From positions 609,699 to 673,698 of the forward strand of contig CAWEJX010000008.1 in the NCBI GenBank assembly GCA_963809485.1: DNA of 64,000 nt, given 5' to 3'. The position numbers and the translations under genes are program-made. Under the pieces are notes generated by a model. That model had not been told where the DNA came from, did not search any database, and worked only from the letters and a program-made list of their open reading frames with translations. Of the stretch, positions 2,021-60,844 are shown in pieces. Every line of letters begins with the position of its first letter. Within the stretch, counting starts at the first letter, position 1. Origin of the DNA: an uncultured Acidobacteriota bacterium. Lineage in GTDB: Bacteria; Acidobacteriota; UBA6911.

Positions 2021-2127
2021 TTAACGCTGACATACGCTGACAGGACGCTGACATACGCTGACAAAAAAATTATATAAATATTTTTATCGGCGTATGTCAG
2101 CGTTCCGTCGGCGTATGTCAGCGTTAA
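2021..2127. repeat. Complete ACGCYGAC palindromic element
   Basis: TTAA-4xACGCTGAC-AT core-4xGTCRGCGT-TAA; its end is the TAA stop of the 2124..3764 gene. Confidence 0.95.
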
Positions 2128-3764
2128 TATTTATTCAGCCGGTAGAGGGAAAAGTAGTCGGTTTTCAGTGCCAGGGTGTATGCGTTGGCCAGGCCGGGAT
2201 CCATGCGCAGGCGCTCCGAAACCGCATCGCCGGTTTCCGCGAACAGCCAGCCCACGGACCGCTGCGGATCGCGAAGCGCCGCATGCCAGAACACGCCTCT
2301 GCCCTCATTATAGATAAACTCCTTCACCGGCAAACCCGAGTCATAAACCAAAGGCGCCTGCCGTCCCATATCGATCAGGATTTTTTTGCCGTCGTAGTTC
2401 CCGCGCAGGTATTCCATCACCGCCCGCCTCTCCGGCTCAATAAAATCGTGCTCGAGAGTTTCCACCATCATGGGGCGGTTCTCCCTCTCCAAAGGCGGCA
2501 CCTGCACACCCAGCACGCACAGAACCAGAAGCGGCCACCGGTAGCAGTTTCGGGACCGGGCAATCATATAAAGCACCAGCGCCGCGGCCGGGACGAGGAG
2601 AAAACCCGGGCCGGGCGCAAGCCTTTCGCGCGGGTTGATCTGGGGAAGGTACCAGCTTATCCAGGGCAGCGCCATGACGGCCAGGGCGAGCAGCAGCATC
2701 GTGCGCTTCCGGGCCGCGTCTGAAGCAAGGACCAGGCTTCCAAAAATGGCGACGGCAGGTAGAAGAAGTACCGAGTAGCGCAGCCGGTAAATCAGCCCCC
2801 AGTAAAGAGCGGAAATATTGATAAGCGAAGGGATCCAGAGCAGCAGGAGCGGCGCGCGCGCCTTCCATTCCCGGCGCTGTGCTGCGAACAACAGGAGGCC
2901 GGCTGCAGCCGCCAGCAGCGGCAGGATCGCCGCCATCTGGGACACCTCTCCGAGGTGATAGAGCGCGGAAAGAAAAGGGCGCTTGTACGTCATGTAGGGA
3001 GACGGGTTCCCTTCGGCGACCCGCAGAAAGAAATTGTCCCCCAGCCGCCACAGGATGTAGCCGAAATGCGCGATGGCGGGCAGGGCAAAAATTCCCAGAT
3101 ACACCGCGCCGGCCTTTACAATCCTTTGACGCGGCAGCAGCTGCGTCCCGTAATCGATGGCCAGCAGCAGCATCACGCCGGCCAGAAAATACCAGCCTTC
3201 GTAGCGGCAGAAAGCGCCCAGGCTCGCCCAGACCGCTGGCATCCAGGGCAAACCGGATCCGCCGCCGGCGCGCCACGCCGCCAGGCTGTCCACGGCCAGC
3301 AGGAAGAGCATCATGTAGACCGGCTCGGTCAGCGGGCAGCTTTGCAGATACTCAAGGTTGGGATTGGCCAGCAAAACGATTGCGGCGAATGCGCCCGCGG
3401 CCTGCGACCCGGTAAAGCGCAGGGAAATTCTGTAAGCCAGAAAAACCGAAACCGCAAAAGAAAATACCGAAATCAGGCTGGGCAGGAAGCCGGACCGGTA
3501 CTGCGATTCAAAAATCACGAACGGCAGATAGAGCAGGTGAATCAGGGGCAGCCAATGCACGCCCATCTGGCTGTAGCCCGGCTCCAGCGAATCCACGAGG
3601 CGCCGCGCCACGAGCAGGTGCGCCTTCGCGTCGTAGTGCGCCGTCGTCAACCCGTGCGCGTAGTAATAAACAAAGCAGACTGCGCCAGCGGCCAGGCCGG
3701 CCAGAAAAATCAGCCGCCCGATCTTCCGGTCCTGCACCGGATCGTTTTCATTCAGAAATTGCAT
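2124..3764 (-). CDS. GT-C (ArnT/GT39-like) membrane glycosyltransferase
   Basis: Polytopic membrane protein with 'HYDAKAHL', 'WLPLIHLL', 'PLTEP', 'RYEGW' motifs; ATG overlaps asnS stop (TGATG). Confidence 0.75.
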   Translation of the reverse strand: MQFLNENDPVQDRKIGRLIFLAGLAAGAVCFVYYYAHGLTTAHYDAKAHLLVARRLVDSLEPGYSQMGVHWLPLIHLLYLPFVIFESQYRSGFLPSLISVFSFAVSVFLAYRISLRFTGSQAAGAFAAIVLLANPNLEYLQSCPLTEPVYMMLFLLAVDSLAAWRAGGGSGLPWMPAVWASLGAFCRYEGWYFLAGVMLLLAIDYGTQLLPRQRIVKAGAVYLGIFALPAIAHFGYILWRLGDNFFLRVAEGNPSPYMTYKRPFLSALYHLGEVSQMAAILPLLAAAAGLLLFAAQRREWKARAPLLLLWIPSLINISALYWGLIYRLRYSVLLLPAVAIFGSLVLASDAARKRTMLLLALAVMALPWISWYLPQINPRERLAPGPGFLLVPAAALVLYMIARSRNCYRWPLLVLCVLGVQVPPLERENRPMMVETLEHDFIEPERRAVMEYLRGNYDGKKILIDMGRQAPLVYDSGLPVKEFIYNEGRGVFWHAALRDPQRSVGWLFAETGDAVSERLRMDPGLANAYTLALKTDYFSLYRLNKY

Positions 3765-5056
3765 CAGGGGTAAATCCTGTAGAGCGTGCGCGGGAAGGCA
3801 ATCGTTTCGCGCAGGTGGCCCAGCTTGCAGAGCCACGACACCATTCTTTCAATCCCCATCCCGAAGCCCGAGTGCGGAACCGTTCCGTATTTGCGCAGGT
3901 CCAGGTACCACTGGAAAGGTTCTATGGAGAGGTTGTGTTCCTTGAGGCGCCTCATCAGCAAATCGTAATCGTGGATGCGCTGCCCCCCGCCGATGATTTC
4001 CCCGTATCCCTCGGGCGCCAGCACGTCCACGCACAGGGCGACTTCCGGCCGATCCGGATCGGGCTGCATGTAAAAAGCCTTAACCTCGGAAGGGTAGCGG
4101 TGCACCATGACCGGGGACGAGTACTGCTCGGAAACGATGGTTTCGTCCGTCCCTCCGAAATCCCCACCCCACCGGATCTCCGATCCCGCAGCCTGCATTT
4201 TTTTGACAGCCTCGTCGTAGCTCAGGCGCGGAAAGGGCTTCCTGATTTTTTCCAGGACGGAAATGTCCCGCTCCAGCACCTCGAGCTGCGCGCGCCGCTT
4301 CGTCAGCACACGCTCGACGATGAAACAGATGAGGCCTTCCGCAAGCTCCATCGTGTCTTCCAGAGTCGCATAGGCGACTTCGGGCTCCACCATCCAGAAT
4401 TCCATCAGGTGCCTGCGCGTCTTGGATTTTTCCGCCCGGAAGGTGGGTCCGAAGCAATAGACCTTCCCGAACGCCGCGGCCGTCGCCTCGTTGTACAGCT
4501 GCCCGCTCTGCGTCAGATAGGCCATTTGATCGAAATACTGCGTCTCAAAAAGCGTCGTGGTCCCCTCGCACGCGTTGGGAGTGAAAATCGGCGTGTCCAC
4601 GAGCGTGAAACCCCGGTCGTCGAAGTAGTCCCGGCACGCCTTGATGATTTCGTGGCGTATCTTCAGGATCGCGTGCTGGCGCGAACTGCGCAGCCACAGG
4701 TGCCGGTTCTCCATCAGAAACGCCGTCCCGTGCTCCTTGGGGGTTATGGGGTAGTTTTCCGCCAGCTGCAGGACACGGAACGCGCTGACGTCCATCTCAT
4801 ACCCGCCGGGCGATCGCGAATCCTTGCGCACCTTCCCGTCGATCTCGAGGCTCGATTCCTGCGTCAGCTTGTCGAGCGCCTCGAACTGCTCCGGCGCGAA
4901 ATTGCCCTTGAAGGCCACGCACTGCATAATCCCGGTTCCGTCGCGGAGCAGAATGAACTGCAGCTTCCCGCTGCTGCGCTTGTTGTACACCCATCCCCGC
5001 AGCGTTACTTCATTCCCCTCATGCGCACCCACATTTTCGATGTAAACAACTTCCAT
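3764..5056 (-). CDS. asnS: Asparagine--tRNA ligase
   Basis: OB-fold 'LRDGTG', 'RHLWLRS', 'YLTQSGQLY', '[12 protein letters not shown]', 'GFGMGIER'. Confidence 0.97.
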
Positions 5057-5071
5057 GTCGATCCTCTAAAT

Positions 5072-5154
5072 TTAACGCTGACGTACGCTGACTCAACGCC
5101 GACACACGCTGAAAAAGAGTTCTATAAATATTTTTTCAGCCTTCGTCAGCGTTA
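5072..5154. repeat. ACGCYGAC palindromic element (right arm shortened)
   Basis: 4 left motifs, AT core, 2 right motifs; overlaps the CYTH 3' end. Confidence 0.9.
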
Positions 5155-5714
5155 CTCAAAGGCTCAGCTTCAAAAACCATGTGGCGGGGAGTGATGCCCC
5201 GGCCCCGGCAATAGTCCAGGTACAGGGCATAATAGCTGGATTTGATGAACTGCGACGGGCCGAAACCCATTTTGGCCGCGAGCGACCGGATCTGTTCCTC
5301 CGATCCCTCGAATTCGACGTAGTTGCCCGCCGGAGTCTCATCCACGGCTACCACGACGCCATCGACCTCGAACTCCCTCCGATATTTCTGATAGCGGAAC
5401 CACAGGCGCAGCCCGATGCGGGCCAGGATGCAATCCATCAACGATCCGTCTTCCAGGCGCGTTTCCAGCTCTTCGCGCGACTTGAAAATCCCCTCCCTGC
5501 GCGGCGGCCCCTTATAGGTGAGCAGGGATTCACCCCGGGCAAAACGTATGCGCACAAGGCACTGCGAGCTGCGGAGCCTCCCGTCGGGAAAGTCGAGCAG
5601 GTGGTTGTCCTCAAAATGCCTGGGCGACAAAATTTTCGCATCCCGGGCGTCCAGCCTGCGGCAGAACTCATCCGGATTGTCGATCTGGATTTTGATCTCG
5701 GTTTCAGTGCTCAA
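5136..5714 (-). CDS. CYTH-domain protein (class IV adenylate cyclase-like)
   Basis: N-terminal ExExK motif 'ETEIKI', 'LTYKGP', 'REELET', 'YQKYRREF'. Confidence 0.9.
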   Translation of the reverse strand: MSTETEIKIQIDNPDEFCRRLDARDAKILSPRHFEDNHLLDFPDGRLRSSQCLVRIRFARGESLLTYKGPPRREGIFKSREELETRLEDGSLMDCILARIGLRLWFRYQKYRREFEVDGVVVAVDETPAGNYVEFEGSEEQIRSLAAKMGFGPSQFIKSSYYALYLDYCRGRGITPRHMVFEAEPLSNADEG

Positions 5715-5748
5715 TGCCCCCGCCCCAGTCTTGAGTTTCGTGTCCTGT

Positions 5749-6747
5749 TCACACCCGGTGCCGGCGCAAAACGACGCCGCACTCGCGCAACAGCTCCAGC
5801 GACGGCTGATTCATCGGATAGTCCTGGTTGTAGACGACTTCAACGATGCCGCTGTTGATGATCATCTTGGTGCATTGCAGGCAGGGGGCCAGGGTGGTGT
5901 AAAGGGTCGACCCTTTCAGGCGCGTCCCGTAATAAGCCGCCTGGGTGATGGCGTTCTCCTCGCCGTGGCTGCAGAGGCATTCGTCCAGGGCCGTGCCGCT
6001 TTCGGCCATGCTGTTGCAGCGGGGGCATCCGCCTTCGTTGCAGTTTTTGGCGCCACGGGGCGTGCCGTTATAGCCGGTCGATATAATCCTTCTTTCGTTC
6101 ACGATGATGGCCGCGACCTTCCGCTTCATGCAGTTGCTGCGCGTCGCGACCACTTTGGCGATGCTCATGAAGTAGTCGTCCCAGGAAGGGCGGTCGAAGC
6201 CCCTCATCAGCGAAGGTATCATGGAATCCAGTTGGCGGTGCAGGCCGTCCAGCATGCCGTTGTTGTCCACGACCAGGTCCGCTTCCCGCCGCGTGGCATC
6301 GAGTTGCTGGCTAGCCGGATCGCCCGACTCGAGTTCGCGGGCCTCTTCGGCGGCAAACTGATCGAGAGTCCCGGCCGCGTTCTCCCTCCCCCGCTCGCGG
6401 CTGCGCTCGAAGCGAACCGCCTGGTCCGCCTCCAGGGCCATCAGCGTGAAATCCTTGCGGCGCCTCAATACCGCGACTTCCTGAGGATTGCGGATCGAGT
6501 CGACGACGTAGTTGCGCTCGTTTCCCAGCTTGCTCAGAATCCTCTCCGCCAGCACCCCGGGACCGAACTGGCGCCTCAGCTCGTTGCCGGTTTGGATGAG
6601 CACATCGCGGCTCATCTCGAGCCCTCTGCTGCGCACTTCCTCGCGTATCTCGTCCGAGAGAGAATAGTACTCGAATCCGCGGCTTTTCAGGTATTCCGCA
6701 ACCGCCGTCTTCCCGGAGCCGTTCTTTCCCGTCAGTCCGATGATCAT
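5749..6747 (-). CDS. P-loop nucleotide kinase / dCMP deaminase fusion
   Basis: Walker A 'GKNGSGKT' N-domain; 'RPSWDDYFM', 'GYNGTP', 'HGEENAI', 'PCLQC' Zn-deaminase motifs. Confidence 0.9.
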   Translation of the reverse strand: MIIGLTGKNGSGKTAVAEYLKSRGFEYYSLSDEIREEVRSRGLEMSRDVLIQTGNELRRQFGPGVLAERILSKLGNERNYVVDSIRNPQEVAVLRRRKDFTLMALEADQAVRFERSRERGRENAAGTLDQFAAEEARELESGDPASQQLDATRREADLVVDNNGMLDGLHRQLDSMIPSLMRGFDRPSWDDYFMSIAKVVATRSNCMKRKVAAIIVNERRIISTGYNGTPRGAKNCNEGGCPRCNSMAESGTALDECLCSHGEENAITQAAYYGTRLKGSTLYTTLAPCLQCTKMIINSGIVEVVYNQDYPMNQPSLELLRECGVVLRRHRV

Positions 6748-6805
6748 AGGGACAGAATGTTAGCATAAATAGGGTAATCGGGGAAAAAAGGTTGAAGGCA
6801 AGGTG

Positions 6806-6872
6806 GAACGTTGCACGTTTGCACGTTTGAACGTTAGAACGTTCAACGTTCAACGTTCTAACGTTCAACGTT
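6806..6872. repeat. AACGTT-based 7-8 bp short tandem repeat tract
   Basis: About 9 units of (A/C)ACGTT plus 1-2 nt, downstream of the namZ stop. Confidence 0.85.
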
Positions 6873-6875
6873 TTT

Positions 6876-8046
6876 TCAATAGATCAGGTATTGGGCGCGC
6901 TGCCGCAGAAACCCGTTGACGTCCTCCTGCCAGCTTTGCCTGATTTGGGAGAGCGGCGCCTGCTGCTCGATCATTTGAGCGATTCCCTTCCCGCCGGACA
7001 AAATGTCGAACGGCAGTTTTTCGTATTCGTACTCGTAGGGCGGCTCGCGCCATTGGAAGGAATCCGGGTAAAGGGCGCGCGCGGCCGAAATCACCGCGAT
7101 GCCGGTCAGATACGGCTCGAACTTCTCCCGGTCGGTGACGTGTATCTGGATCCCCCCGCACATCTGCCCGGCCCATTTTTGAAACGTGGGCTGAAAATAC
7201 GCCGCCCGGAACCATACGCCGGGAAGGCCCTGCGCATTCAGTCGCCCGGCAAAGGCGCGGCTGTCGATAAATGGAGCGCCGATCAGCTCAAATGGCCGCG
7301 TCGTGCCGCGGCCCTCGGACAGACCGGTCCCTTCAACCAAAACCGTTCCGGGATAGACGGTAGCGGAATCCAGCGTGGGCAGATTGGGCGAGGGCTGAAC
7401 CCATGGAAGCCCTGTTTGGTCGAACCAGTGATCTCTCTTCCACCCCTGCATTTCGATCACGGTCAGGCTGCAGCCTATTCCGTATTCCGCATTGAAAAGA
7501 CGGGCCAGTTCGCCCGCCGTCATCCCGTGGCGCATAGGCAGCGGGTAGCGCCCGACAAAGGAACGGAATTCCGGGTCGAGCAGATTCCCTTCCACATCCC
7601 TTCCGTTGACGGGATTGGGCCGGTCGAGCACCACCATCTCTTTCCCGGACCGCGCGCAGGCCTCCATGCAGTAGGCCATCGTATATATAAAGGTATAGAC
7701 ACGCGTGCCAACGTCCTGGAGGTCGTACAGGAGCACGTCAAGCCCCTGGAGCATTTCCTCCGTCGGCCAGCGTGTCTCGCCGTAGAGGCTGTGTACGGGC
7801 AGGCCCGTATGAGGGTCCCGGTAAAACTCCGACTCGACCATGTTGTCCTGCTTTTCGCCCCTGGCGCCGTGTTGCGGGCCGAAAAGTGACGCCAGCCGGA
7901 ACTCCCCGCACTCTATCAGGGCATCCGCCGTATGCCTGAAGTCCGGAAGCACCGAGGCCGGGTGGACCACCGCACCCACTCGCGCCCCGCGTATCCGATC
8001 CCTGCGATCATTCAGAAGAACCTCGATACCCGGCTTCACCGCCATC
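6876..8046 (-). CDS. namZ: Exo-beta-N-acetylmuramidase NamZ (DUF1343) family
   Basis: 'LFGPQHG', 'DLQDVGTRVYTF', 'DRPNP', 'RHGMTAGELA', 'EGRGTTRPFE'; start at MAVKPG. Confidence 0.9.
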
Positions 8047-8100
8047 GCCTCACCTCGTTCCTGGTCATATCTGATGAGCACGGGGCTCATCGGCACATTT

Positions 8101-8178
8101 ATAACGCTGACCCACGCCGATCGGACGCCGACGAACGCTGAAAAATTCTATATTTTTCCCGGCGTGGGTCAGCGTTAA
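8101..8178. repeat. ACGCYGAC palindromic element (right arm shortened)
   Basis: Same motif array in the divergent intergenic region. Confidence 0.9.
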
Positions 8179-8294
8179 TTTTTTCCGATTGGGCTACTAC
8201 TTTATTTTCACCCATCGAACGGGTCCGGAGACCCATCCTCTCATTGCGCTTGACTTGAAAAAACCGTTATATTTCAATTATCAGTACTCGCGCT

Positions 8295-8849
8295 ATGGAA
8301 CATACGCTGGTTTTGAATGCGACCTATGAACCCATCAACATCGTGTCCTGGAAACGCGCGCTCAGACTGCTCTACCAGGGCAAGGTCGAGGTGTTGGCCG
8401 AATACGACCAGGAGATCCGGAGCATCAGCTTCACCATCAAAATGCCCAGCGTCCTGCGCCTCCTGCGCTATGTCAAGATCCGGAAGCGTTATCAGCACGT
8501 GAAGTTCTGCAGGGCGAACATCTACGCGCGCGATCACAATACCTGCCAGTATTGCGGGAAAAAGTGCTCCACGGACGACCTCACCTTCGACCATGTTATC
8601 CCCGTCGTCAAGGAAGGCGAGAAAACCTGGGAGAACATCGTCACCTGCTGCATAGACTGCAACCATAAAAAAGGAGGACGCACGCCGGAAGAAGCCGGTA
8701 TGCGCCTGATACGGCATCCCAAAGAACCGGAGTGGGTCCCCACCATGCTGCACGTCACCATCGGGTTCCGCAGCGCCCCGGAAACATGGCGCGATTACCT
8801 CTATTGGAACGTCGAGCTCGAATCCGATTTGAACGCTGACTCACGCTGA
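8295..8849 (+). CDS. HNH endonuclease (McrA/HNH_5-like, stand-alone)
   Basis: 'TLVLNATYEP', 'RDHNTCQYCG', 'TFDHVIP', 'WENIVTCCIDCNHKKG'. Confidence 0.92.
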   Translation: MEHTLVLNATYEPINIVSWKRALRLLYQGKVEVLAEYDQEIRSISFTIKMPSVLRLLRYVKIRKRYQHVKFCRANIYARDHNTCQYCGKKCSTDDLTFDHVIPVVKEGEKTWENIVTCCIDCNHKKGGRTPEEAGMRLIRHPKEPEWVPTMLHVTIGFRSAPETWRDYLYWNVELESDLNADSR

Positions 8850-9216
8850 CAGGACGCCGACGAACGCTGAAAAAAAATAAACTTTTCAGACTCGGTTGGC
8901 GCTGCCCTGGTGAAATTTGGCATCAGCAATCAGATTTCGGGAAATAAATGGCCTGCTTGCGAAACAATAATACCGGCGGATTATATGTCGGAAGACCCAA
9001 CACTTCACGATTTGGAACGTCGAGCTCGAATCCGATTTGAACGCTGACTCACGCTGACAAGACGCCGACGAACGCTGAAAAAAATTAAACTTTTCAGACT
9101 CGGGTGGCGCTGCCCTGGTGAAATTTGGCATCAGCAATCAGATTTCGGGAAATAAATGGCCTGCTTGCGAAACAATAATACCGGCGGATTATATGTCGGA
9201 AGACCCAACACTTCAC
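8804..9216 (+). repeat. Tandem direct duplication, 208-bp period (HNH 3' end + half element + dprA 5' region)
   Basis: 8804-9008 nearly identical to 9012-9216. Confidence 0.95.
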
Positions 9217-10335
9217 AATCTCGAATCCTTAACAAAGTCCGCCATCGAGGTCACGCTGCTGCCGGGCGTGGGCTACCTCGCGCAAAACCGCATCTGGAAG
9301 GCGTTTCCGGATATTTCCGAGTTTTTTTCGGCGGACGAGCCCTCCCTGGCCGCGCTTGGTATCTCTTCCGAGACGCTCCCGGTGCTACGCTCCAGGGCCT
9401 GCCGGGCCATCGCCGCGGAGATTTTCGACTGGTGCGCCCGCGAGGATTGCCGGCTGCTGGTCCGCGGACAGCCCGGATACCCTTCCCTGCTGGATGAAAT
9501 ATACGATCCGCCGCTGGTCCTGTATGCGCGCGGCTGCCTGGAGATTCCGGCAAATCCCTGCATCGCGATTGTGGGAACACGCAAGCCGACAATTTACGGG
9601 CTGCAAATGGCGCAGGGGATCGCGTCAGACCTGGCCGGCAGAGGCCTTTGCATCGCCAGCGGCCTGGCCCGCGGCATCGATGCCGCCGCGCACCGCGGCT
9701 GCCTGGATGCGAACGGCAAGACCATCGCGGTGCTCGGCTGCGGCATCGACGTCGTCTACCCGAAGGAGCACCGCCAGCTCGTCCGCAAAATTGCGCAAAA
9801 CGGATTGCTGCTTTCGGAATTCGTTCCCGGCACCCCGCCTTCGCCGCAGAATTTCCCGGTGCGCAACCGCATCATCAGCGGCCTGGCTCTGGGCACCCTC
9901 ATCGTCGAAGCCAGCGAATACAGCGGATCGCTGATCACCGCCAGGCTGGCCATGGAGCAGAACCGGGAAGTGTTCGCCTTGCCGGGCAACCTGACGTCGC
10001 CGCAAAGCTTCGGGCCCAATTTTCTGATCAAACAGGGCGCGAAGCTCGTCCAATCCTGGCGCGATGTGGTGGAAGAGCTGCCCTCGGAGCTTCGGCGCGA
10101 AATATTGATCAGGGAAGATACACCTTGCCCAAAACCGGGCCTGGGACTGTTGTCCAGGGACGAAGAAAGCGTCCTGGGCCTTCTGAAAGCGGACGAGGCA
10201 GTGCAATTCGATAAAATATACCGCGCCAGCGGCCTCGGCATCCCCCAGTTGAGCGGATTGATGCTGAGTCTAGAGATGCAGGGGTATATTCGCCAGCTGC
10301 CGGGGAATCTTTATGTGCGGATCGTTAAACGTTGA
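9193..10335 (+). CDS. dprA: DNA-processing protein DprA
   Basis: 'AIVGTRKPT', 'SGLARGIDAAAH', 'FPVRNRIISGL', 'SGSLITA'; adjacent to topA. Confidence 0.95.
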   Translation: MSEDPTLHNLESLTKSAIEVTLLPGVGYLAQNRIWKAFPDISEFFSADEPSLAALGISSETLPVLRSRACRAIAAEIFDWCAREDCRLLVRGQPGYPSLLDEIYDPPLVLYARGCLEIPANPCIAIVGTRKPTIYGLQMAQGIASDLAGRGLCIASGLARGIDAAAHRGCLDANGKTIAVLGCGIDVVYPKEHRQLVRKIAQNGLLLSEFVPGTPPSPQNFPVRNRIISGLALGTLIVEASEYSGSLITARLAMEQNREVFALPGNLTSPQSFGPNFLIKQGAKLVQSWRDVVEELPSELRREILIREDTPCPKPGLGLLSRDEESVLGLLKADEAVQFDKIYRASGLGIPQLSGLMLSLEMQGYIRQLPGNLYVRIVKR

Positions 10336-10394
10336 ACGTTTAAACGTTTGAACGTTGAACGTTGGAACGTGCAAACGTGTTAACGTTCCAACGT
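10323..10394. repeat. AACGTT-based short tandem repeat tract
   Basis: About 9 AACGT(T/G) units overlapping the dprA stop. Confidence 0.85.
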
Positions 10395-10473
10395 GCGATC
10401 CCTGGGCAAAATCTGGAGGTTATGATAATTTTGCTTGGAATTTTCTTAGGGTTAGTATAGCTTGCGCGCTTCT

Positions 10474-12888
10474 ATGGATAAGTCACTCGTAGTCGTTGAA
10501 TCGCCGGCCAAGGCAAAAACCATCGGCAAATACCTTGGCAAAAACTATGTCGTCAAGGCCTCTGTCGGCCACATCAAGGATCTGCCCAAGAGCAAGCTGG
10601 GCGTTGACGTGGAAGACGATTTCACTCCCCACTACGCCGTAATTCCCGCCAAAGCTAAGGTGGTCAAGGAATTACGCGCAGCGGCCAAAGGCATTAAAGA
10701 CATCTACCTCGCGGCCGACCCGGACCGCGAGGGAGAAGCCATCTGCCAGCACCTGTCCGAGGAACTGTCCTCAAAGTCCCGCAACATCTATCGCGTCCTT
10801 TTCCACGAGATCACCAAAAACGCCATCCAGGAGGCGTTCAAGAGGCCCGGCCGCATCAACCAGCACAAGGTGGACGCGCAGCTGACGCGGCGCATCCTGG
10901 ACCGGCTGGTCGGATACAAAATCAGCCCCCTGCTGTGGGACAAGGTGAGGCGCGGCCTCTCCGCCGGCAGGGTTCAAACCGTGGCCCTGCGCCTGATCGT
11001 CGAGCGGGAACAGGAGATACGCGCTTTCAAATCCGAGGAATACTGGACCCTCGCAGCCAGGCTGGCGGGAAAAGCGCCTCCCGAATTTAAGGCCTGGGCG
11101 CGCCTGATCGACGGGAAGAAATGGGAAGTCGGCGACGGCGAAACCGCCAGGGGCATCGCGAGCGAACTCGAGAGCGTGCCCTTTGTGGTCCGCGAGATTC
11201 ACCGGCGGGAAAAGAAAAAATATCCCGTGCCGCCCTTCATCACAAGCAAGCTTCAGCAGGAAGCGGCCAGGAAACTCAACTTTTCGGTCAAACGGACTAT
11301 GCTCCTGGCGCAGAGGCTTTACGAAGGGATTGAAATAGGCCGGGAGGGCTCGGTCGGCCTGATCACCTATATGCGCACCGACAGCAGCCGCGTGGCCGAG
11401 AGCGCCCTCGAGGAAGTGCGCAACCTGATCAAGCGCGATTTCGGCGAGGCCTATCTTCCCCACCATCCCATTTACTACAAATCCAAAAAAACGGCCCAGG
11501 AAGCGCACGAGGCCATCCGGCCCACCTCCGTCGAGCGGACGCCCGAAAGCCTCCGCAACGACCTGGAACCGGACCTCTGGAAGCTGTACGCGCTGATCTG
11601 GACGCGCTTCGTCGCTTCCCAGATGAATCCGGCGGTCTTCGACCAGACCAACGTCAAAATCGACGCCGGAAGAGTGGAGTTCCGGGCCACGGGTTCCGTC
11701 GTCAAGTTCAGCGGGTTTCTCGCCATCTACCAGGAGGCCAGGCCGGATGAAAAGCCGGCCGGCCAGGAAGCGGTCGAGGAAGAGGAAGTCCTGCCGGAAA
11801 TGACCGAGGGCGAAACGCTCGCGCTCAAAGAGCTCCTGCCCGACCAGCATTTCACTCAGCCGCCGCCGCGCTACAACGAAGCCAGCCTGGTCAAGGCCCT
11901 CGAAGCCAAAGGGATCGGGCGGCCAAGCACCTATGCCTCAATTTTGAGCACGCTGCAGGACCGCGAGTACGCCGACAAGCAGGACGGCAAGTTCTACCCG
12001 ACCGAGATCGGCGAGGTGGTCCTCGGGCTTCTTGTCGCCAGCTTCCAGGAGATCTTCGATTACGAGTACACCGCGCGCATGGAGGATCACCTCGACCGCA
12101 TTGAATCGGGCCGCGAGCCCTGGAAACAGGCGCTGCGCGATTTCTACGACCGTTTCGCCAAAAAACTGAAGGTGGCGCAAAAGGAGATGCGCGACGTCAA
12201 GGCCGAGGCCGTTGAGACCGACGTCGTCTGCGAGAAATGCGGCAGCAAAATGGTGATCAAATGGGGCAAGTTCGGGCGCTTCCTGGCCTGCTCGGCATAC
12301 CCCGAATGCCGCAACACGCGCGAAATCTCAAAGGAGCCGAACGGAGCGGAACCGGCGCCGGCCCTGCCCGAAGATATCGAGTGCGACAAATGCGGCAGGC
12401 CGATGGTGCTCAAGCGCGGACGCTTCGGCGAGTTCCTGGCCTGTTCCGGATACCCCGAATGCCGCAACACGAAGAAGATCGTGAAATCGGCCCAAGATGT
12501 CACCGTAAAACACGACATACCCCTGAATGAAGATTGCCCCGTGTGCGGCAAAAAACTGGCGATCAAGCACGGCCGTTACGGGGAATACACCGCCTGCAGC
12601 GATTACCCGGACTGCAAGTACATCAAGCTGAAATCCACCGGCGTGCCCTGCGGCAGAGCCGGTTGCGGCGGGGAGATTGTCGAAAGGAAATCCCGCCGGG
12701 GCAAAACTTTCTACGGCTGCTCCAATTACCCGGACTGCGATTTCGTGCTTTGGAACAAGCCTTTGCCCGATCCCTGCCCGCTGTGCCAGGCGCCGTTTAC
12801 GCTCCTTAAAACCACCAAGCGCTCCGGCGCGGTCCGCATCTGTAATACCGACGGATGCAAATTCAATGAGCCCCTGGAGAGCGATTGA
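10474..12888 (+). CDS. topA: DNA topoisomerase I
   Basis: 'VVESPAKAK', 'DPDREGEAI', 'SAGRVQ', 'ITYMRTDS', C-terminal Zn ribbons. Confidence 0.98.
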   Translation: MDKSLVVVESPAKAKTIGKYLGKNYVVKASVGHIKDLPKSKLGVDVEDDFTPHYAVIPAKAKVVKELRAAAKGIKDIYLAADPDREGEAICQHLSEELSSKSRNIYRVLFHEITKNAIQEAFKRPGRINQHKVDAQLTRRILDRLVGYKISPLLWDKVRRGLSAGRVQTVALRLIVEREQEIRAFKSEEYWTLAARLAGKAPPEFKAWARLIDGKKWEVGDGETARGIASELESVPFVVREIHRREKKKYPVPPFITSKLQQEAARKLNFSVKRTMLLAQRLYEGIEIGREGSVGLITYMRTDSSRVAESALEEVRNLIKRDFGEAYLPHHPIYYKSKKTAQEAHEAIRPTSVERTPESLRNDLEPDLWKLYALIWTRFVASQMNPAVFDQTNVKIDAGRVEFRATGSVVKFSGFLAIYQEARPDEKPAGQEAVEEEEVLPEMTEGETLALKELLPDQHFTQPPPRYNEASLVKALEAKGIGRPSTYASILSTLQDREYADKQDGKFYPTEIGEVVLGLLVASFQEIFDYEYTARMEDHLDRIESGREPWKQALRDFYDRFAKKLKVAQKEMRDVKAEAVETDVVCEKCGSKMVIKWGKFGRFLACSAYPECRNTREISKEPNGAEPAPALPEDIECDKCGRPMVLKRGRFGEFLACSGYPECRNTKKIVKSAQDVTVKHDIPLNEDCPVCGKKLAIKHGRYGEYTACSDYPDCKYIKLKSTGVPCGRAGCGGEIVERKSRRGKTFYGCSNYPDCDFVLWNKPLPDPCPLCQAPFTLLKTTKRSGAVRICNTDGCKFNEPLESD

Positions 12889-12995
12889 TTAACGCTGACG
12901 TACGCCGACAAAACGCTGACTTACGCTGAAAAAAAATATATAAATATATTTTTACAGCGTATGTCGGCGTTTTTGTCAGCGTGAGTCGGCGTTAA
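12889..12995. repeat. Complete ACGCYGAC palindromic element
   Basis: TTAA...TTAA, 4+4 motifs, begins at the base after the topA stop. Confidence 0.95.
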
Positions 12996-13007
12996 ACTGG
13001 AGGGGAG

Positions 13008-13919
13008 ATGCGCATTGCTCTGGCGGTCCTGGGAATTGTTGTGGTGTCGGCATGGGCCTGCGGGCAGTCGCCCAGAGCGTCTTCATCGATTTCCGCTCTC
13101 AGCGGGGAGCGGGCGATGGATTACGTCCGGGCGCAGGTGGCTTTCGGCCCGCGCCCCCCGGGTTCGCCGCAGCTTGAGAAATGCAGGCAATTCATCGAAA
13201 AAGAGCTGCGCAGTTTCGGGTACAGCGTCGAGGACGACGCGTTTACGGCCGAAACGCCCTACGGCCCGATCCGCATGCACAACCTGATCGCGCGCAAAGG
13301 CGACGGCGCCCGCGGAGTGATCGCGCTGGCGAGCCACTACGATACCAAGCTGATGGAGGGGAAAAACTTCGTCGGCGCCAACGACGCCGGCAGCAGCACC
13401 GGCCTGCTGCTGGAACTGGCGAGAGTCCTGGCCGCAAGCAGGGATCCGGTGGACTACTGGTTCCTGTTCCTTGACGGCGAGGAGGCTTTCGTGGAGTGGA
13501 GCACCTTCGACAGCACCTACGGCAGCCGGCACCTTGCGCGCCGCTGGCAGAAGGAAGGGACCGCGAAAAAAATACGCGCCCTGATCCTGCTCGACATGAT
13601 CGGGGACAAGGACCTGGACATATTTTATGAAACCAACTCCACGCGCTGGCTGATGGACCTGGTCTGGGAGACGGCGCAAAAGGCCGGCTTGAAGGACATC
13701 CTTTCCCCAATACGGACGGCCGTGGAGGACGATCATCTGCCCTTCCTCGATGCCGGCATCCCGTCGGTCGACATCATCGACCTCAATTTCGGCCCGCAGA
13801 ATTCCTACCACCACACACTGGCCGACACGCTGGACAAAGTCAGCCCCGAAAGCATGGAGAAGACCGGCAAGCTCGTCCTCGCGCTGCTAAACGCCTTAAA
13901 TAACGCTGACGCACGCTGA
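13008..13919 (+). CDS. M28 family peptidase (glutaminyl cyclase-like)
   Basis: 'SHYDTK', 'GANDAGSS', 'DGEE', 'LDMIG', 'DDHLPF', 'YHHT'. Confidence 0.9.
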   Translation: MRIALAVLGIVVVSAWACGQSPRASSSISALSGERAMDYVRAQVAFGPRPPGSPQLEKCRQFIEKELRSFGYSVEDDAFTAETPYGPIRMHNLIARKGDGARGVIALASHYDTKLMEGKNFVGANDAGSSTGLLLELARVLAASRDPVDYWFLFLDGEEAFVEWSTFDSTYGSRHLARRWQKEGTAKKIRALILLDMIGDKDLDIFYETNSTRWLMDLVWETAQKAGLKDILSPIRTAVEDDHLPFLDAGIPSVDIIDLNFGPQNSYHHTLADTLDKVSPESMEKTGKLVLALLNALNNADAR

Positions 13920-14005
13920 CGAAACGCCGACATACGCTGAAAAATAGATATATATAAATTTTATCTCAGCGTGCGTCGGCGTTATGTCAGCGTATGTCAG
14001 CGTTA
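13901..14005. repeat. Complete ACGCYGAC palindromic element
   Basis: 4+4 motifs; encodes the NADAR* end of the M28 ORF. Confidence 0.95.
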
Positions 14006-14090
14006 CTGAATTGCGGGTTGCGACTCGCTATGATAGTATTCCGTTTTTTTGGTTTCACGCCATGATCATCCCCTCCCGAAAGGAGCTTTT

Positions 14091-16192: not shown

Positions 16193-16198
16193 CCCCTG

Positions 16199-16995
16199 AT
16201 GTACCCTAAGATACTGGATTTGGGTCCCGTAACGATTCACACCTATGGCCTGTTGCTGGCCGCTGGCTTTCATCGCGGGCATCTGGATGACGAGCCGGAA
16301 CGCCAGAGAAGCAGGGGATCGATCCGGATTCAATCTGGAACATGGGGCTGATCGTCATCTTTGCGGCTCTCGTGGGCGCGAAGGTTATTTTGCTTTTTTC
16401 CAATTCCGATATTACTCCCAGAATTTCCGGGAAATCTTTTCCCTCTCCACCCTTCGTTCCCCGGGGGTCTATTACGGAGGCCTGCTGCTCGCCCTGGGCG
16501 CCGCGGCCTGGTACATGGCGAAGAAAAAGACTCCCCGGCTGGACCGTCGCCGATCTTGCGGCGCCGGGCATCGCGTTGGGACAGGCGATTGGACGCTTCG
16601 GGCTGCCTGTCGGCAGGCTGCTGCTACGGCAAGCCTACTTCGCTGCCGTGGGGCATCACCTTCAGCAATCCATATTCCTACGACAATGTGGGCGTTCCGC
16701 TCAATGTGGCGCTTCACCCGACGCAGATCTATGAATCCATCGGCACCTTGTGCCTTTATCTTTACCTGACGTGGCGTCTCTCCAGGAAACACATGACGGG
16801 ACAGATCATGCTGGAGTACCTGGCTCTTTACGCCTGCTTCGCTTTATCCTCGAGTTCTTCCGCGACGATGACCGCGGCTTTGTGCTTTACGGGCTTCTTT
16901 CGACATCGCAGTTTATCGCTATTCTGACCGTCCTCGGTGCGGGCGTCCTCTACTGGTTTCTCGTCCGCCGTCTCGGGGAAGTTCAGCAAAATTGA
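16199..16995 (+). CDS. lgt: Prolipoprotein diacylglyceryl transferase, frameshifted
   Basis: 'MYPKILDLGPVTIHTYG', 'YYGG', 'GQAIGR', 'GCCYG', 'HPTQIYE', 'RFILEFFRDD' in different frames. Confidence 0.88.
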
Positions 16996-21973: not shown

Positions 21974-22059
21974 TAAAAACGCTGACGCACGCGGAAAAAA
22001 TATATACATATTTTTTTGTCAGCGTATGTCGGCGTCCTGTCAGCGTAAGTCAGCGTTAA
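21956..22059. repeat. Complete ACGCYGAC palindromic element
   Basis: 4+4 motifs; encodes the ADLR* end of the macrodomain ORF. Confidence 0.93.
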
Positions 22060-26884: not shown

Positions 26885-26892
26885 ATATTTAT

Positions 26893-43839: not shown

Positions 43840-43921
43840 CCCGGGCTCCTCAAAGTGTTGGTTTTCTAGAGAAAAAATTTTATTTCGGCGTATGTCGGCG
43901 TTTTGTCGGCGTAAGTCCGCG

Positions 43922-44560: not shown

Positions 44561-44669
44561 CTGTCTCGTCCTCTTTTGAATTGGAAATGACACCGACAAA
44601 AAATATATATTTTTTATCAGCGTATGTCAGCGATTTTATCAGCGTATGTCAGCGTTACAGGAGGAAAAC

Positions 44670-45218: not shown

Positions 45219-45322
45219 CGCTGACGTACGCTGACAGGACGCCGACGCACGCTGAAAAAAATATATATATAAATTTTTTCAGCGTGAGTCAGCGGTTTTT
45301 TCGGCGTTCGTCGGCGTTTGAC
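45216..45322. repeat. ACGCYGAC element between convergent genes
   Basis: Starts at the DUF3237 TAA; right arm encodes the tannase C-terminus (…ADSR*). Confidence 0.9.
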
Positions 45323-46913: not shown

Positions 46914-47018
46914 TTAACGCTGACGTACGCTGACATTCGCTGACGAACGCTGAAAAAATAAATATATATATTTTTTTATCGGCGTTCATCAGCGATTGTC
47001 AGCGTAGGTCAGCGTTAA
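46914..47018. repeat. Complete ACGCYGAC element between divergent genes
   Basis: TTAA...TTAA, 4+4 motifs. Confidence 0.93.
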
Positions 47019-49188: not shown

Positions 49189-49302
49189 GATTCACAATTT
49201 ATAAATATTTTTTTCAGCGTGTGTCGGCGTCCTGTCGGCGTGAGTCAGCGTTAAAATTTATGGACGGGCCTCCAGAGCCGGTCTCGAAACGAATTGTGGG
49301 CG

Positions 49303-50119: not shown

Positions 50120-50261
50120 ATCCGATTGTAAGCATTTCCGACATACTCTCCAGGCCAGCCCGATTAGGCTATTAATTTGCATTCACTTTTCCAACGCTGA
50201 CCCACGCCGACCGGACGCCGACGAACGCCGAAAAATCTATATATATTTTTTTGTCGGCGTT
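50120..50261 (+). repeat. ~140-bp direct repeat copy 1 (unique flank + palindromic element)
   Basis: Near-identical to 51313-51454. Confidence 0.9.
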
Positions 50262-50392
50262 CGTCGGCGTTTTTGTCGGCGTAGGTCGCAGCTTCCGGTT
50301 CTATAGGGCCGGAGGCCCGGCAGAAATCAGCCAGAGGTGGAGCGAACCCCTGGTAATCTGGCCTTCACCAGGCCCGATGGTCCTGCAAATTA

Positions 50393-51312: not shown

Positions 51313-51454
51313 ATCCGATTGCAAGCATTTCCGACATACTCTCCGGGCCCGCCCGATTAGGCTATTAATTTACATTCACTCTCCCAACGCTGACTCACGC
51401 CGACCGGACGCCGACCAACGCTGAACAAATTTATATATATTTTTTTGTCGGCGT
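51313..51454 (+). repeat. ~140-bp direct repeat copy 2
   Basis: Near-identical to 50120-50261. Confidence 0.9.
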
Positions 51455-51607
51455 TTGTCCGCGTAAGTCAGCGTTTAAAATTCAACGTGCCAATCTTCAT
51501 CCGATCTGTTTTATTGCCCTTGTTTCAAAGCCTTGTCTGTGTTATTGGATTTCAACAGCATTTACCAATTTACCAATGCAAGCCTAAAAACGCAGCGAGG
51601 TGAGACC

Positions 51608-53132: not shown

Positions 53133-53413
53133 CATGGGATGAGACGTGAGGAAATCCGCAGCAGGAATGTTTCCAAATCCCGTCCTATGAAAGCGGATGT
53201 CAAGCCTAAAAGGCTTATCGCAAAATTGCAGATTGGGACCAATCATTTCCGGGAATTGGGCATTTTTTTGCAGCGTCCGTCAGCGCTTTTGTCAGCGTAA
53301 GTCAGCTTTTAATATTCAACGTGCCAATCTTCAGCCGTTGACGGCAAGCAGCTTTTCTTGTTCGCCGCCCTCCCCTGGCAGCAAGCCCAAGTTTTCATCA
53401 GCGTGCGGCCGGA

Positions 53414-54490: not shown

Positions 54491-54709
54491 GGCATTCTTT
54501 GTCAGCGTTCGTCCGCGCTTTGTCAGCGTTCGTCCGCGTTACATCCTTACAATTGATGTTTGGGCTTTTCTCGCACACCAGGAAGCCTGCTCTGCATTTC
54601 ATGGCCGGGCTGTAAAGATCCCCGGGCATACGGGAATCGCTTTTCGCCATGGAAGGGCTCAAGTAAACTGGAGCGGAGCCCGAAGAGAACTATTGTTATG
54701 GGAGTGTAT

Positions 54710-56085: not shown

Positions 56086-56093
56086 ACCGTTAA

Positions 56094-56192
56094 AACGCTG
56101 ACCCACGCCGACCGGACGCCGACGAACGCTGAACAAATTTATATTTTTTTGTCAGCGTTCGTCGGCGTTTTGTCGGCGTAAGTCAGCGTTAA
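56094..56192. repeat. Complete ACGCYGAC element
   Basis: 4+4 motifs after the AAA gene; another partial copy at 56341-56419. Confidence 0.92.
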
Positions 56193-56530
56193 ATATTCAA
56201 CGTGGCAACCTGCATCCGTTGCGCGTGATGAAGAGAGTGTCTTGCGTGCAGCACGATGCTCTCGTCACCGATTCACGTCGATTGCCGGATGGACCTACAG
56301 GATGTCTCCCCGCCAGAGCGCGGGTCATTCACAGTCACAATTAACGCTGACATACGCTGACCCAACGCTGACCCACGCTGAAAAAATCTGTCTATTTTTT
56401 TCGGCGTGCGTCGGCGTTATTTTTTTAACATTTCATTAACACTCACCCTAATGGGAGCTCTCTTGATAGGCCAATGTGTAAAGGACTTTTAGACATAATG
56501 GGGGTAGAATAGAAACAGCCGGAGGCGAAA

Positions 56531-57210: not shown

Positions 57211-57222
57211 CAGCGCCAATAA

Positions 57223-57319
57223 AACGCTGACCTACGCTGACCGGACGCTGACCTACGCTGAAAAAATCCATAGTTTTTTCAGCGTGGGTCGGCGCTTTGT
57301 CGGCGTACGTCCGCGTTAA
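57223..57319. repeat. Complete ACGCYGAC element
   Basis: 4+4 motifs upstream of the EPS locus. Confidence 0.9.
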
Positions 57320-58620: not shown

Positions 58621-59597
58621 TGCGTCCCATCCTTCATACAGTCTTCTGGCTGCTGCTCAGCGCCGGAATGGCGGTGGCGCAGCAGCCGGCGCCGGAGGTT
58701 GCGCCTCTGCCCCTGACGATGGACTTCGCAATCGGCGTCGCCGACCTGCTGGAGGTCAACGTCCTGGGCGTAGCGGACTTCACGCGCGAGCTGCGTGTCA
58801 GCGGCAACGGGACGATACGCATGCCGTTCCTTGGAGACCTGCAGGTCGAGGGTCTGACGTGCCGCCAGCTGGAGGACAGGCTGGCGAACCTCCTGGACCC
58901 GGAGTATGTGAAGGACCCGCAGGTATCGGTAAACATCAAGGAGCCGCGCAGCCGCATGTTTTCGCTGATGGGCGCGGTGATGAAGCCGGGCCAGTACCAG
59001 ATCCTGGAGCAGGTGACGCTGGTCTCGGCGATCGCGGGCGCCGGCGGGCTGGACTTCGCCAGGGCGGGCGACAAAGCCACGATCCAGCGCAGCTACGGGG
59101 TAAAACCCGTCCAGTCTGCAACCGCCCAGGTCACGGCGGACGACACGAAGCCGGCGTCGACCTATCAGATTGAGGTAGATCTCAAGAAGCTCCTCATGGC
59201 CGGCGACATGTCACTGGACGTCCCGATCATGCCCGGAGACGTGATTGCCATCCCTCAGCGCGACAAAAAGGCGGTCTATGTAATCGGCGACGTCACCCGG
59301 CCGGGGGCGTTCGACTACCCGCCTGACGGGGGCATAAGTCTCTCGCGCACCGTAGCGCTTGCCGGCGGCCCGACAAAAACCTCGAAACAAAGCAAGTCGA
59401 TACTGGTCCGCCAGTCCCCCGACGGTTCCGTCGAGCGCATTGCCGTGAACCTGGGAAAGATCCTGAAAGGCGAGGACCCCGACATGCAGCTGCGTCCCGA
59501 AGACATGCTTTATGTCCCCGGCAGCGTAGGAAAAAGCATGGCCTGGAGCTTCATCAATTACACCCCCACCATGCTAGGCTGGGCCCTGATCTATTAA
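58620..59597 (+). CDS. wza: Polysaccharide export protein (Wza/Poly_export + SLBB)
   Basis: 'IGVADLLEVNV', 'GTIRMPFLGDL', 'DPQVSV', 'GAVMKPGQY', repeated SLBB domains. Confidence 0.88.
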   Translation: MRPILHTVFWLLLSAGMAVAQQPAPEVAPLPLTMDFAIGVADLLEVNVLGVADFTRELRVSGNGTIRMPFLGDLQVEGLTCRQLEDRLANLLDPEYVKDPQVSVNIKEPRSRMFSLMGAVMKPGQYQILEQVTLVSAIAGAGGLDFARAGDKATIQRSYGVKPVQSATAQVTADDTKPASTYQIEVDLKKLLMAGDMSLDVPIMPGDVIAIPQRDKKAVYVIGDVTRPGAFDYPPDGGISLSRTVALAGGPTKTSKQSKSILVRQSPDGSVERIAVNLGKILKGEDPDMQLRPEDMLYVPGSVGKSMAWSFINYTPTMLGWALIY

Positions 59598-59763
59598 ATC
59601 CAATCTTTCAGCGTACGTCAGCGTCATTCAGCGTTCGTCAGCGTTCAAAGTCATTTCGTGCTTAATGCCATGCATCGGCTTCGGAGAATGCTATTGACGG
59701 CGTTTGGTATCCCTTGCGCCCAGCGAGGCAGCAAGTCCGGTAGACCGGGATGGTCAGCGCATA

Positions 59764-60168
59764 TTACGGGCTGATAGATCTTGCCCACAACACGCTCCGG
59801 CCACGGCATGCACGTCCATGGATGCCGAAGCTCGACGATCTTGTCGCTGAGATTCCGGAGTTGTCTAGACTTCGCAGCCGTGGTGAATCAGCCTGCCCGT
59901 GGATTTTCCACTCCGGGGTGTATTTGCGCGCTGAGATAATCTGACGATGCCTTCGCGCTTCGTCTTCGTGGTAAGTATGGGCTACAAGCAGAATAACGAG
60001 CCGGATCCAGGCCAAGGGTACGCCAAACGGGATCTGCATCTTCGGTTCCGCGTCAGGCCAGCTTACGGCGTGCGGATCGTTGAACACCAGTTTGTGGCAA
60101 TGCATCGTGGCTGACATTACGCTCGGCAACACTGCGTCGGATTTATCTTCAGCCGGCAAAATACGCAT
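59764..60168 (-). CDS. Hypothetical ORF / remnant, antisense within EPS locus
   Basis: 134-aa ORF in a lower-GC insert; no recognised motif. Confidence 0.3.
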   Translation of the reverse strand: MRILPAEDKSDAVLPSVMSATMHCHKLVFNDPHAVSWPDAEPKMQIPFGVPLAWIRLVILLVAHTYHEDEARRHRQIISARKYTPEWKIHGQADSPRLRSLDNSGISATRSSSFGIHGRACRGRSVLWARSISP

Positions 60169-60409
60169 TCGAAGCTACATTCAGAGGCATTTACAGCCGA
60201 TCCACGTCAATGGCTATGTTGTTGCACTTTTCCTCAGACAATATTTCCCAACCCCCGTTTTTATTTCAGATATTTTTCCGCGTTCGTCAGCGTCATTCCG
60301 CGTTCGTCAGCGTTCAACCTTCCAGGTTCGGCGTTCAATATTGCATGATTTCTCCAGCCTGTCTTATTGTCAGCTTGCGGCAGGTTTTTTGAATTAGTAG
60401 AATATTGGA

Positions 60410-60652
60410 ATGAGCAAGATTGAGGCGGTTCATGAAGCGGCAGGGGGCCTGGTGGTGAGTGACCAGAGAATTATGGGAGGCACGCCGGTCTTTAAGGGAA
60501 CTCGGGTTCCCGCTTCCTCACTATTTGAATATCTCTCAGATGGGCTTTCCTTGGATTATTTCCTCGAAACCTTTCCATCGGTCAGTCGAGAACAGGCCAT
60601 AGGAGTGCTGCGTTACGGTCAGCATCGTATCGAGGAAGAGCTGGCAGCATGA
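60410..60652 (+). CDS. DUF433 antitoxin-like protein
   Basis: 'IMGGTPVFKGTRVP', 'FLETFPSVSREQA'. Confidence 0.9.
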   Translation: MSKIEAVHEAAGGLVVSDQRIMGGTPVFKGTRVPASSLFEYLSDGLSLDYFLETFPSVSREQAIGVLRYGQHRIEEELAA

Positions 60653-60690
60653 GGATCCTCCTCGAAAATCCGAATCCTGGCAAGAGTTGA
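60649..60690 (+). pseudogene. DUF5615 PIN-toxin start remnant
   Basis: ATGA-coupled 'MRILLEN' (cf. MRILLDE of DUF433 partners), stops after 13 codons. Confidence 0.5.
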
Positions 60691-60844
60691 AGCCTCTCCA
60701 TCCAGCTATAGTCTTGAAAACGAGTTTCACTCTTTTGTTTCCCAACTCCGCCTTTTATTTCATATTTTTTTCAGCGTAAGTCAGCGTCATTCAGCGTTCG
60801 TCAGCGTTAAACATTCACCTTAACTAATCCCATAAAGTAACGTT

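Follow-up and report, generated by a model that had tools for sequence, protein, structure and literature searches.

The window analysed here is a stretch of 64,000 nucleotides at the end of a contig (G000:C8:609699-673698) in the genome of an uncultured Acidobacteriota bacterium (G000; 6.04 Mb in 21 contigs, G+C content 55.6%, completeness 95.7%, contamination 7.3%), and it carries housekeeping genes in both orientations together with a dense family of palindromic repeats. The octamer ACGCYGAC occurs 173 times on the two strands of the window, against a mean of 5.46 (standard deviation 2.42, maximum 12) in 100 dinucleotide-preserving shuffles, and 165 of these occurrences lie inside 40 loci defined with nhmmer (3,353 bases covered), leaving eight outside. 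A complete copy consists of a terminal TA, four of these iterons at 10/11/10-bp spacing, a core made of an A-run, (TA)n and a T-run, four inverted iterons and a second terminal TA. We regard the palindromes as probably being derivatives without an open reading frame (ORF), akin to MITEs (miniature transposable elements with inverted repeats), of a small nuclease-encoding element whose terminal inverted repeats are built of iterons, the iterons being the putative recognition sites of the protein.

A preliminary description, made from the letters of the window, had reported about 30 loci and a consensus for the element. All 30 of its starts lie in, or at most 40 nt from, an nhmmer-defined locus, the consensus holds, and copies do stand in tandem, convergent and divergent gaps. 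The A/T core is present as described, its length being 16-27 nt in 29 complete copies and so slightly shorter than the 25-30 nt first given. Ten loci are additional to that list; they comprise a half copy (37496-37528) and further units within two tandem arrays. The copies, in window coordinates, are as follows.

2022-2126: complete palindrome of 4+4 iterons; its right TTA doubles as stop codon for the minus-strand gene at 2124-3764
5073-5155: copy with 4+1 iterons
8102-8179: copy with 4+1 iterons, in a divergent gap
8831-8902: left-arm half copy, overlapping the 3' end of an HNH endonuclease gene
9039-9098: left-arm half copy upstream of dprA
12890-12994: complete copy filling the gap between the topA and M28 peptidase genes; one border of an inverted gene
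13901-14005: complete copy (4+4), bordering the inverted M28 peptidase gene on its other side
17933-18589: tandem array of five units, period about 138
21957-22058: copy with 3+4 iterons, filling the gap ahead of the PBP1 gene
25212-25295: copy with 4+1 iterons, left border of a 2.3-kb segment absent from the related genome G006
27640-27745: copy with 3+4 iterons, right border of the 2.3-kb segment; both termini are stop codons of convergent genes
30145-31017: tandem array of six units, period about 154; one complete copy, then five units
33292-33395: complete copy (4+4), in a divergent gap
34722-34812: left-arm copy
37228-37326: copy with 4+2 iterons, beginning immediately past a stop codon
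37496-37528: right-arm fragment of 3 iterons, missing from the earlier list
43870-43924: right-arm half copy
44590-44657: right-arm half copy, in a divergent gap
45216-45319: copy with 4+3 iterons, in a convergent gap
46915-47017: copy with 3+3 iterons, in a divergent gap
49195-49253: right-arm half copy, in a convergent gap
50193-50287: copy with 4+3 iterons
51386-51475: copy with 4+2 iterons
53261-53309: degenerate fragment
54494-54541: degenerate fragment
56093-56191: complete copy (4+4)
56342-56421: copy with 4+2 iterons
57222-57318: copy with 4+2 iterons
59597-59646: right-arm half copy, abutting a stop codon
60267-60315: degenerate fragment
60762-60809: right-arm half copy
Many window copies are thus partial, none contains an ORF, and the element often occupies the entire gap from a stop codon to the next ribosome-binding site.

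Folded as a single strand, the element is predicted to form a hairpin of about 50 bp (-56 to -73 kcal/mol, z -8.7 to -16.6). The repeat unit of the array at 17933-18589 is the last ~45 nt of the gene at 17019-17951 followed by the element minus part of its distal arm, with the last unit complete, and that of the array at 30145-31017 is the last ~75 nt of the gene at 31015-33216 plus a partial element. Both arrays are minisatellite-like, and another iteron family forms arrays with a 250-bp period in the genome G012.

Short, ORF-less, present in many copies and bounded by terminal inverted repeats, the window element has the features of a MITE, and an ORF-bearing element with the same ends exists in the same genome. 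In G000, 13 arm pairs are split by an insert within 6 kb, only three of them with a gap below 600 bp. The full form is 574 bp long and lies outside the window (C7:765011-765584), where 4+4 ACGCYGAC arms enclose an ORF of 142 amino acids matching PF13366 (PDDEXK_3, 116.7 bits) and TIGR04256 (GxxExxY, 108.9 bits). This is the sole PF13366 gene in G000 (one match in an hmmsearch of all six-frame ORFs of at least 40 amino acids), and it sits within the iteron-rich region, at a distance of 25-90 kb from the window as judged by synteny with G006, a related species whose genome is 98% complete. In the full copy, the sequence from left arm to ORF corresponds to the A-run and TATA of the short copies, and that before the right arm to their T-run, as fits an internal deletion. 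The window itself contains neither a PF13366 nor a Y1 transposase gene, in agreement with the preliminary description, which had seen no mobilising enzyme there. Its proposal of a non-autonomous MITE-like element is borne out by the ORF-less copies and by the full-length copy with the same arms elsewhere in the genome; for the mobility of the window copies themselves, and for a clean empty site, the comparisons below give no support.

Residues D68, E78 and K80 and the G, E and Y of the GxxExxY motif are invariant in all 34 PF13366 domains that we compared. An AlphaFold2 model of the protein (predicted local distance difference test score 85.7) matched only PD-(D/E)XK folds, and these weakly: Cas4 SSO0001 (best, E 4e-4), a restriction-endonuclease-like protein, lambda exonuclease and Hjc. 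A sequence search of the PDB gave no match to the nuclease, and in a plasmid collection the protein matched eight records, all labelled 'GxxExxY protein' or unannotated. PMC3424549 lists the function of PF13366 as 'Unknown'. A second split element in G000 (C7:784597-785134) holds a minus-strand ORF of ~129 amino acids (C7:784608-784997), with no Pfam family match, and an AACGTT-type array.

The association of PF13366 genes with iteron arms extends beyond this genome. The family is present in 12 of 30 genomes of the same genus (none in G006) and in 57 of the 151 genomes of a phylum sample; G196 has five matches. It also occurs in four of five small genomes with ACGCNGAC pairs (8-23 pairs each; controls 0). 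Among 34 PF13366 genes, 22 from the genus and 12 from small genomes of the type found in the Candidate Phyla Radiation (CPR), 30 have the same 7-mer repeated upstream and, inverted, downstream, the common layout being AACC, three iterons, ORF, three inverted iterons, GGTT. At 30 further loci from other genera the arm score was at least 3 in 22 and at least 4 in 15, compared with 8 and 1, respectively, of 57 shifted control windows. Paralogue groups differ in their iteron (CACAGAG, CACGGAT, CACGAAT, AAGACCGC, GACTCRAA, nACGAAT and ACGCNGA). With iteron classes mapped on the 34-domain tree, 10 changes are required (minimum 9), against a mean of 21.4 after shuffling, with none of 200 shuffles as low; the ACGCNGA arms go with two protein clades with Shimodaira-Hasegawa-like approximate likelihood ratio support of 96 and 94. 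To judge from these sequences, the tree shows that ORF and arms travel together; because related copies share both traits, it is joint travel rather than binding specificity that the tree demonstrates, and it is not by itself proof of the latter. Repeats of the AAGACCGC type, the family that forms the 250-bp-period arrays in G012, gave 26 and 13 matches in two genomes with the cognate PF13366 type and none in three genomes without it.

In small genomes the elements are found within the stop-free long frames of conserved genes, encoding leucyl-tRNA synthetase (LeuRS; two genomes), GyrA, LepA, SecA, isoleucyl-tRNA synthetase (IleRS) and GatB, and the left-arm iterons on the sense strand there read ACGC[G/A]GA, avoiding an in-frame TGA. 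In the LepA gene of G196, a left arm, a PF13366 domain and a right arm are inserted in frame, together about 505 bp; the insert is absent in 12 of 12 relatives from the same family, in which the two lepA halves are adjacent. The LeuRS gene of G044 contains an in-frame ORF-less copy that is absent from three relatives (G223, G214 and G227). These alignments show that arms plus ORF, and in the second case an ORF-less copy, have evidently been inserted as blocks in conserved genes. Element-carrying proteins at L004, L025 and L009, in small CPR-type genomes, also have extra in-frame domains, a NUDIX domain in LeuRS, His_Phos_1 in IleRS and an intein in GyrA; inspection by eye revealed no iteron arms around the NUDIX or His_Phos_1 domains.

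Sequence conservation within the copies follows the iterons. When the variable positions, spacers plus Y, were compared in 29 distinct complete copies, the two arms of a copy gave 129 complementary matches, compared with 155.4 +/- 9.7 for arms taken from different copies, and the spacers of standalone copies are about random with respect to one another (mode 11 of 22 identical). Orthologous copies in G000 and G046, a fragmented metagenome-assembled genome (MAG) that is 92-95% identical to G000, differ at 1 of 212 iteron core positions, 6 of 35 Y positions, 67 of 282 positions in spacers and A/T core and 1,427 of 17,894 flanking positions. For G000 and G006 the differences number 29 of 156 in the cores, 11 of 24 at Y, 77 of 224 in spacers and A/T core and 1,169 of 10,454 in the flanks; in both comparisons G000 served to define the cores, so that the apparent core rate may be lowered by up to one half. 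The 8-mer has been kept at many loci while the sequence between iterons drifted, which suggests recognition of the sequence itself. It is thus the 8-mer, and not the pairing of the arms, that is conserved, which points to recognition by a protein. The preliminary description had offered a mobile element and a protein-binding array as alternatives; since the conservation pattern fits protein-recognised iterons, the two merge into one.

A hidden Markov model built from 20 complete copies gave 937 matches in G000, which merged into 494 loci. Of these, 249 have an arm of a second, larger repeat no more than 450 bp away, and the other 245 are standalone. Standalone loci are clustered, with 37 in C7:680-790 kb, 41 in C8:600-674 kb and 14 on C5; the first two regions, about 3% of the genome, hold 78 of the 245, a concentration of about 10-fold, and synteny with two G006 contigs makes all three clusters one chromosomal region. 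By the rough gene calls made in this analysis, only one standalone locus lies inside a called gene. A gene 3' end falls within -45 to +30 nt of 101 of the 245, and a 5' end as near at 29, random intergenic placement giving 37% and 35%; 46 standalone loci overlap a stop codon. The larger repeat has hundreds of copies in G000 at 90-97% identity, with a degenerate iteron palindrome at its centre, and its orientation follows the direction of replication, flipping near dnaA (C7:454.5 kb). Near-identical complete iteron copies (19-21 of 22 variable positions) occur only inside it. The left end of the larger repeat is similar to what lies upstream of the Y1 transposase gene at C6:298547, and this similarity suggests a non-autonomous element of the IS200/IS605 type with a central iteron palindrome. 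A copy of this nested palindromic repeat also lies at positions 1-100 of the window (G000:C8:609490-609800).

The strict three-iteron pattern, found 71 times in G000, is present in one of 24 sampled genomes of the same genus (G006, nine matches) and in none of 16 genomes from other families of the class. When one genome was scanned for each species, the complete architecture turned up in two MAG records of Acidobacteriota and, unexpectedly, in several very small genomes. Genome G034, flagged as unpublished, contributes only to the tally of the strict pattern (no match) and to that of PF13366 in the phylum sample (one match), and no conclusion depends on it alone. Occupied sites are largely common to G000, G046 and G006, and iteron number shifts between them two at a time (21 bp). 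In three places G000 has a segment between elements, of about 2.5, 3.2 and 8.8 kb, where a single element stands in G006. The M28 peptidase gene (13008-13919), between two elements, is inverted relative to other genus members where it was found, and at its gaps those genomes have other 7-8-mer palindromes. The 2.3-kb stretch at 25296-27639, also between two elements, encodes a 2-hydroxyglutaryl-CoA dehydratase D-component and a BcrAD/BadFG ATPase, and the corresponding site in G006 has a single element and lacks these two genes. At L050-L071, in other genomes of the genus, the gap upstream of an EF-G-like gene contains lineage-specific palindromic tandem 7-mers (ATTCCAG, GGTTACA, AGGTTGC and GGAACGG). 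An AACGTT-type short-unit palindrome lies at 6827-6868 of the window, and this family stands in place of ACGCYGAC elements at several orthologous sites of G006. The HNH endonuclease gene (HNH_5, 8295-8849), between copies upstream of dprA, is by synteny also present in G006; nothing was found that links it to the element.

Several known kinds of sequence were considered for the element and set aside. At 1-40000 of the window, element arms form none of the 79 sites that resemble a terminator (a T run after a G+C-rich, short-looped hairpin); of 13 promoter-like sites there (-35 and -10 hexamers 16-18 nt apart) one lies in an element, with no excess over shuffles. The element is accordingly no canonical intrinsic terminator or sigma-70 promoter. 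A DNA-uptake sequence is ruled out by the location of 165 of the 173 8-mers in arrays, and hundreds of palindromic copies speak against response-regulator (Pho-box-like) sites. An integron cassette array, with attC sites and co-oriented promoterless cassettes beside an integrase, was likewise considered, by gene content and orientation; the window has housekeeping genes running in both directions. No Rfam family matches the element: a full copy in locus L032 gave sub-threshold hairpin matches only, and the sole match in the window is Acido-Lenti-1 at 43159-43205 (39.3 bits), away from the element. This match shares its sequence type with repeats that tandemly flank a Y1_Tnp (RAYT-like) gene at C15:225627-225971, and the Acido-Lenti-1 'small RNA' motif may be a repetitive extragenic palindromic (REP) unit. 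The 106-bp element has no match in the plasmid collection; a phage collection likewise gave no match, and viral contigs gave two pattern matches. A literature search, from which subscription journals and supplements were left out, found no account of the element or of a link between GxxExxY proteins and iterons.

We infer binding, cleavage and a mode of movement as follows. Several nuclease protomers would bind the 8-bp iterons, which the 10/11/10-bp spacing would place on the same helix face in each arm; the nuclease may then bring the two arms together, or act on an extruded hairpin, and would cut close to or at the TTAAC/GTTAA ends. In this way the unit, and likewise its gene-less copies, might be copied or moved, with a preference for nearby AT-rich intergenic DNA at gene ends.

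Several observations weigh against deriving the window palindromes from such an element. No PF13366 gene was found in G006 or G046, both of which have elements, and G046 had been predicted to carry one. Conversely, five genus members with ACGC-type PF13366 genes have no strict three-iteron match, and in the CPR family of G044 co-occurrence is moderate (both in 6 genomes, gene only in 4, pattern only in 2, neither in 8; n=20). The arms have the opposite polarity at three orthologous ORF copies (L095, L098 and L099), and a copy on a Fusobacteria plasmid is flanked by direct, not inverted, repeats. A lone PD-(D/E)XK nuclease is not known as a transposase. Cores are strongly conserved at fixed orthologous sites, which neutral dead copies would not be expected to show. 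Among 22 G000 sites alignable in G006, six have the same element, 12 a different short-unit palindrome (GTGGAA-, AACGTT- or GACCGGTC-type, one of them beside an ACGCYGAC arm remnant) and four are unclear; all 12 mappable G006 copies are filled in G000, and three-way alignments with G046 show the same sites occupied. The comparisons with G006 and G046 show no clean filled/empty polymorphism for copies of the window type, and contigs assembled from four metagenomic DNA runs show no empty site against window 1500-17800, these contigs being short and breaking inside elements. Nor could a target duplication, for which the TA/TAA termini would be the candidate, be defined, the terminal TA at both ends being itself palindromic and no clean empty site having been found.

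Of the other explanations, one is that the palindromes are host-domesticated binding or structural elements at gene ends (roadblocks, insulators, sites of recombination or organisation, or hairpins at mRNA 3' ends), now immobile, with a link to the nuclease that is purely historical. Sites conserved over three species, cores far better conserved than flanking coding DNA in G046 (1/212 against 8%), the avoidance of gene starts (29 loci near a 5' end and 101 near a 3' end), the very stable predicted hairpins and the position of elements at the borders of one inversion and three indels would all suit host use. We nevertheless judge it unlikely: the arms do not covary, canonical terminator and sigma-70 features are missing, 23 of 24 sampled genomes of the genus do without the element and have the same genes, the cores in G006 decay (29/156) faster than the flanks, and the in-frame copies in CPR genes would be left unexplained. 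That the nuclease gene is a secondary invader, a homing-type selfish ORF that entered the A/T core of existing palindromes spread by another route, seems to us quite improbable, as arms and ORF arrive jointly as a block in lepA, the iteron motif follows the protein clade over 34 loci, and PF13366 genes are armed even in genomes without ORF-less copies of that type. It would nonetheless account for an ORF in only one of about 245 standalone copies and for G006 and G046 having copies without the gene, and both the unrelated ORF in the second split element (C7:784597-785134) and the nesting of other repeat families into elements in G006 are in keeping with it.

In-situ slippage or template switching would require no dedicated protein, short tandem units expanding and folding back at gene ends. 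The shifts of two units between orthologous copies, the tandem arrays in the window and the different 7-8-mer palindromes of other genus members in the same gaps recall such a process, but the same 8-mer at the same 10/11/10 spacing recurs at hundreds of loci, CPR genomes included, and cores are conserved where spacers are randomised, so that slippage is in our view very improbable. Least credible, to the point of being nearly dismissible, is mobilisation of REP or REPIN-type elements by a REP-associated tyrosine transposase (RAYT, Y1/HUH). The repeats are intergenic, palindromic and of high copy number, the genome has four Y1_Tnp loci, and about half of the nhmmer loci fall within the larger repeat, which is strand-biased and has an end similar to what lies upstream of one Y1 gene; yet none of the four Y1_Tnp loci has an iteron element within 3 kb, and one is flanked by a different REP-like repeat. 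Compared with REPs as described in PMC3733652, the element is also far longer, and it has no GTAG or CGTC tag.

As a nuclease-mobilised element with gene-less derivatives, the repeat would resemble bacterial MITEs (for example Correia/NEMIS, RUP and MITEAba12), which are likewise small, ORF-less, multi-copy and intergenic with terminal inverted repeats, and have a longer gene-bearing relative with the same ends. It differs from them in its arms, each composed of four helically phased 8-bp iterons, in its partner gene, which codes for a lone PD-(D/E)XK nuclease and not a DDE, serine or HUH transposase, and in the position of copies at conserved sites with constrained cores. Eukaryotic Foldback elements have arms of short tandem units in variable number around a centre, and plasmid iteron arrays such as ParR-parC have protein-binding repeats about one helical turn apart flanking an A/T-rich core; the element described here is chromosomal, with hundreds of copies, and the likeness implies no homology. 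Rickettsia palindromic elements are palindromic repeats found in frame inside conserved protein genes, but their sequence is different, and the arms described here are accompanied by a candidate enzyme. Inteins and homing endonuclease genes also place a small nuclease ORF in conserved genes with presence or absence among relatives, whereas here there is no intron or intein splicing, the iteron arms are inverted and there are hundreds of ORF-less non-allelic copies. REP sequences, the bacterial interspersed mosaic elements (BIMEs) that they compose and the REPINs associated with RAYTs are similarly high-copy extragenic palindromes at gene ends, with species-specific sequence at shared sites, but going by PMC3733652 a REP measures 20-40 bp against about 100 bp here, and the present element has neither a GTAG or CGTC tag nor an association with Y1 genes. 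PMC3733652 also mentions the Rickettsia elements RPE-4 and RPE-6.

A broader proposal, which we advance tentatively as possible rather than probable, is that PF13366 proteins, a widespread family without an assigned function, serve as the enzymes of a superfamily of mobile elements, so far undescribed and very small (0.5-0.6 kb), whose iteron-array ends co-evolve with the protein. These elements and their gene-less derivatives would fill the intergenic regions of Acidobacteriota genomes with iteron palindromes that are lineage-specific, enter essential CPR genes in frame and seed inversions, indels and minisatellite-like arrays. The repeats mark breakpoints of gene inversion and of gene gain or loss. 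If the proposal is true, a large family annotated only as 'GxxExxY protein' would gain a function and a DNA target, the missing enzyme would be named for one class of prokaryotic palindromic repeats, and an explanation would be at hand for the peptides and domains inserted into conserved proteins of tiny CPR genomes. The family would also constitute a set of natural small nucleases with readable modular DNA specificities, each protein clade being paired with an iteron motif.

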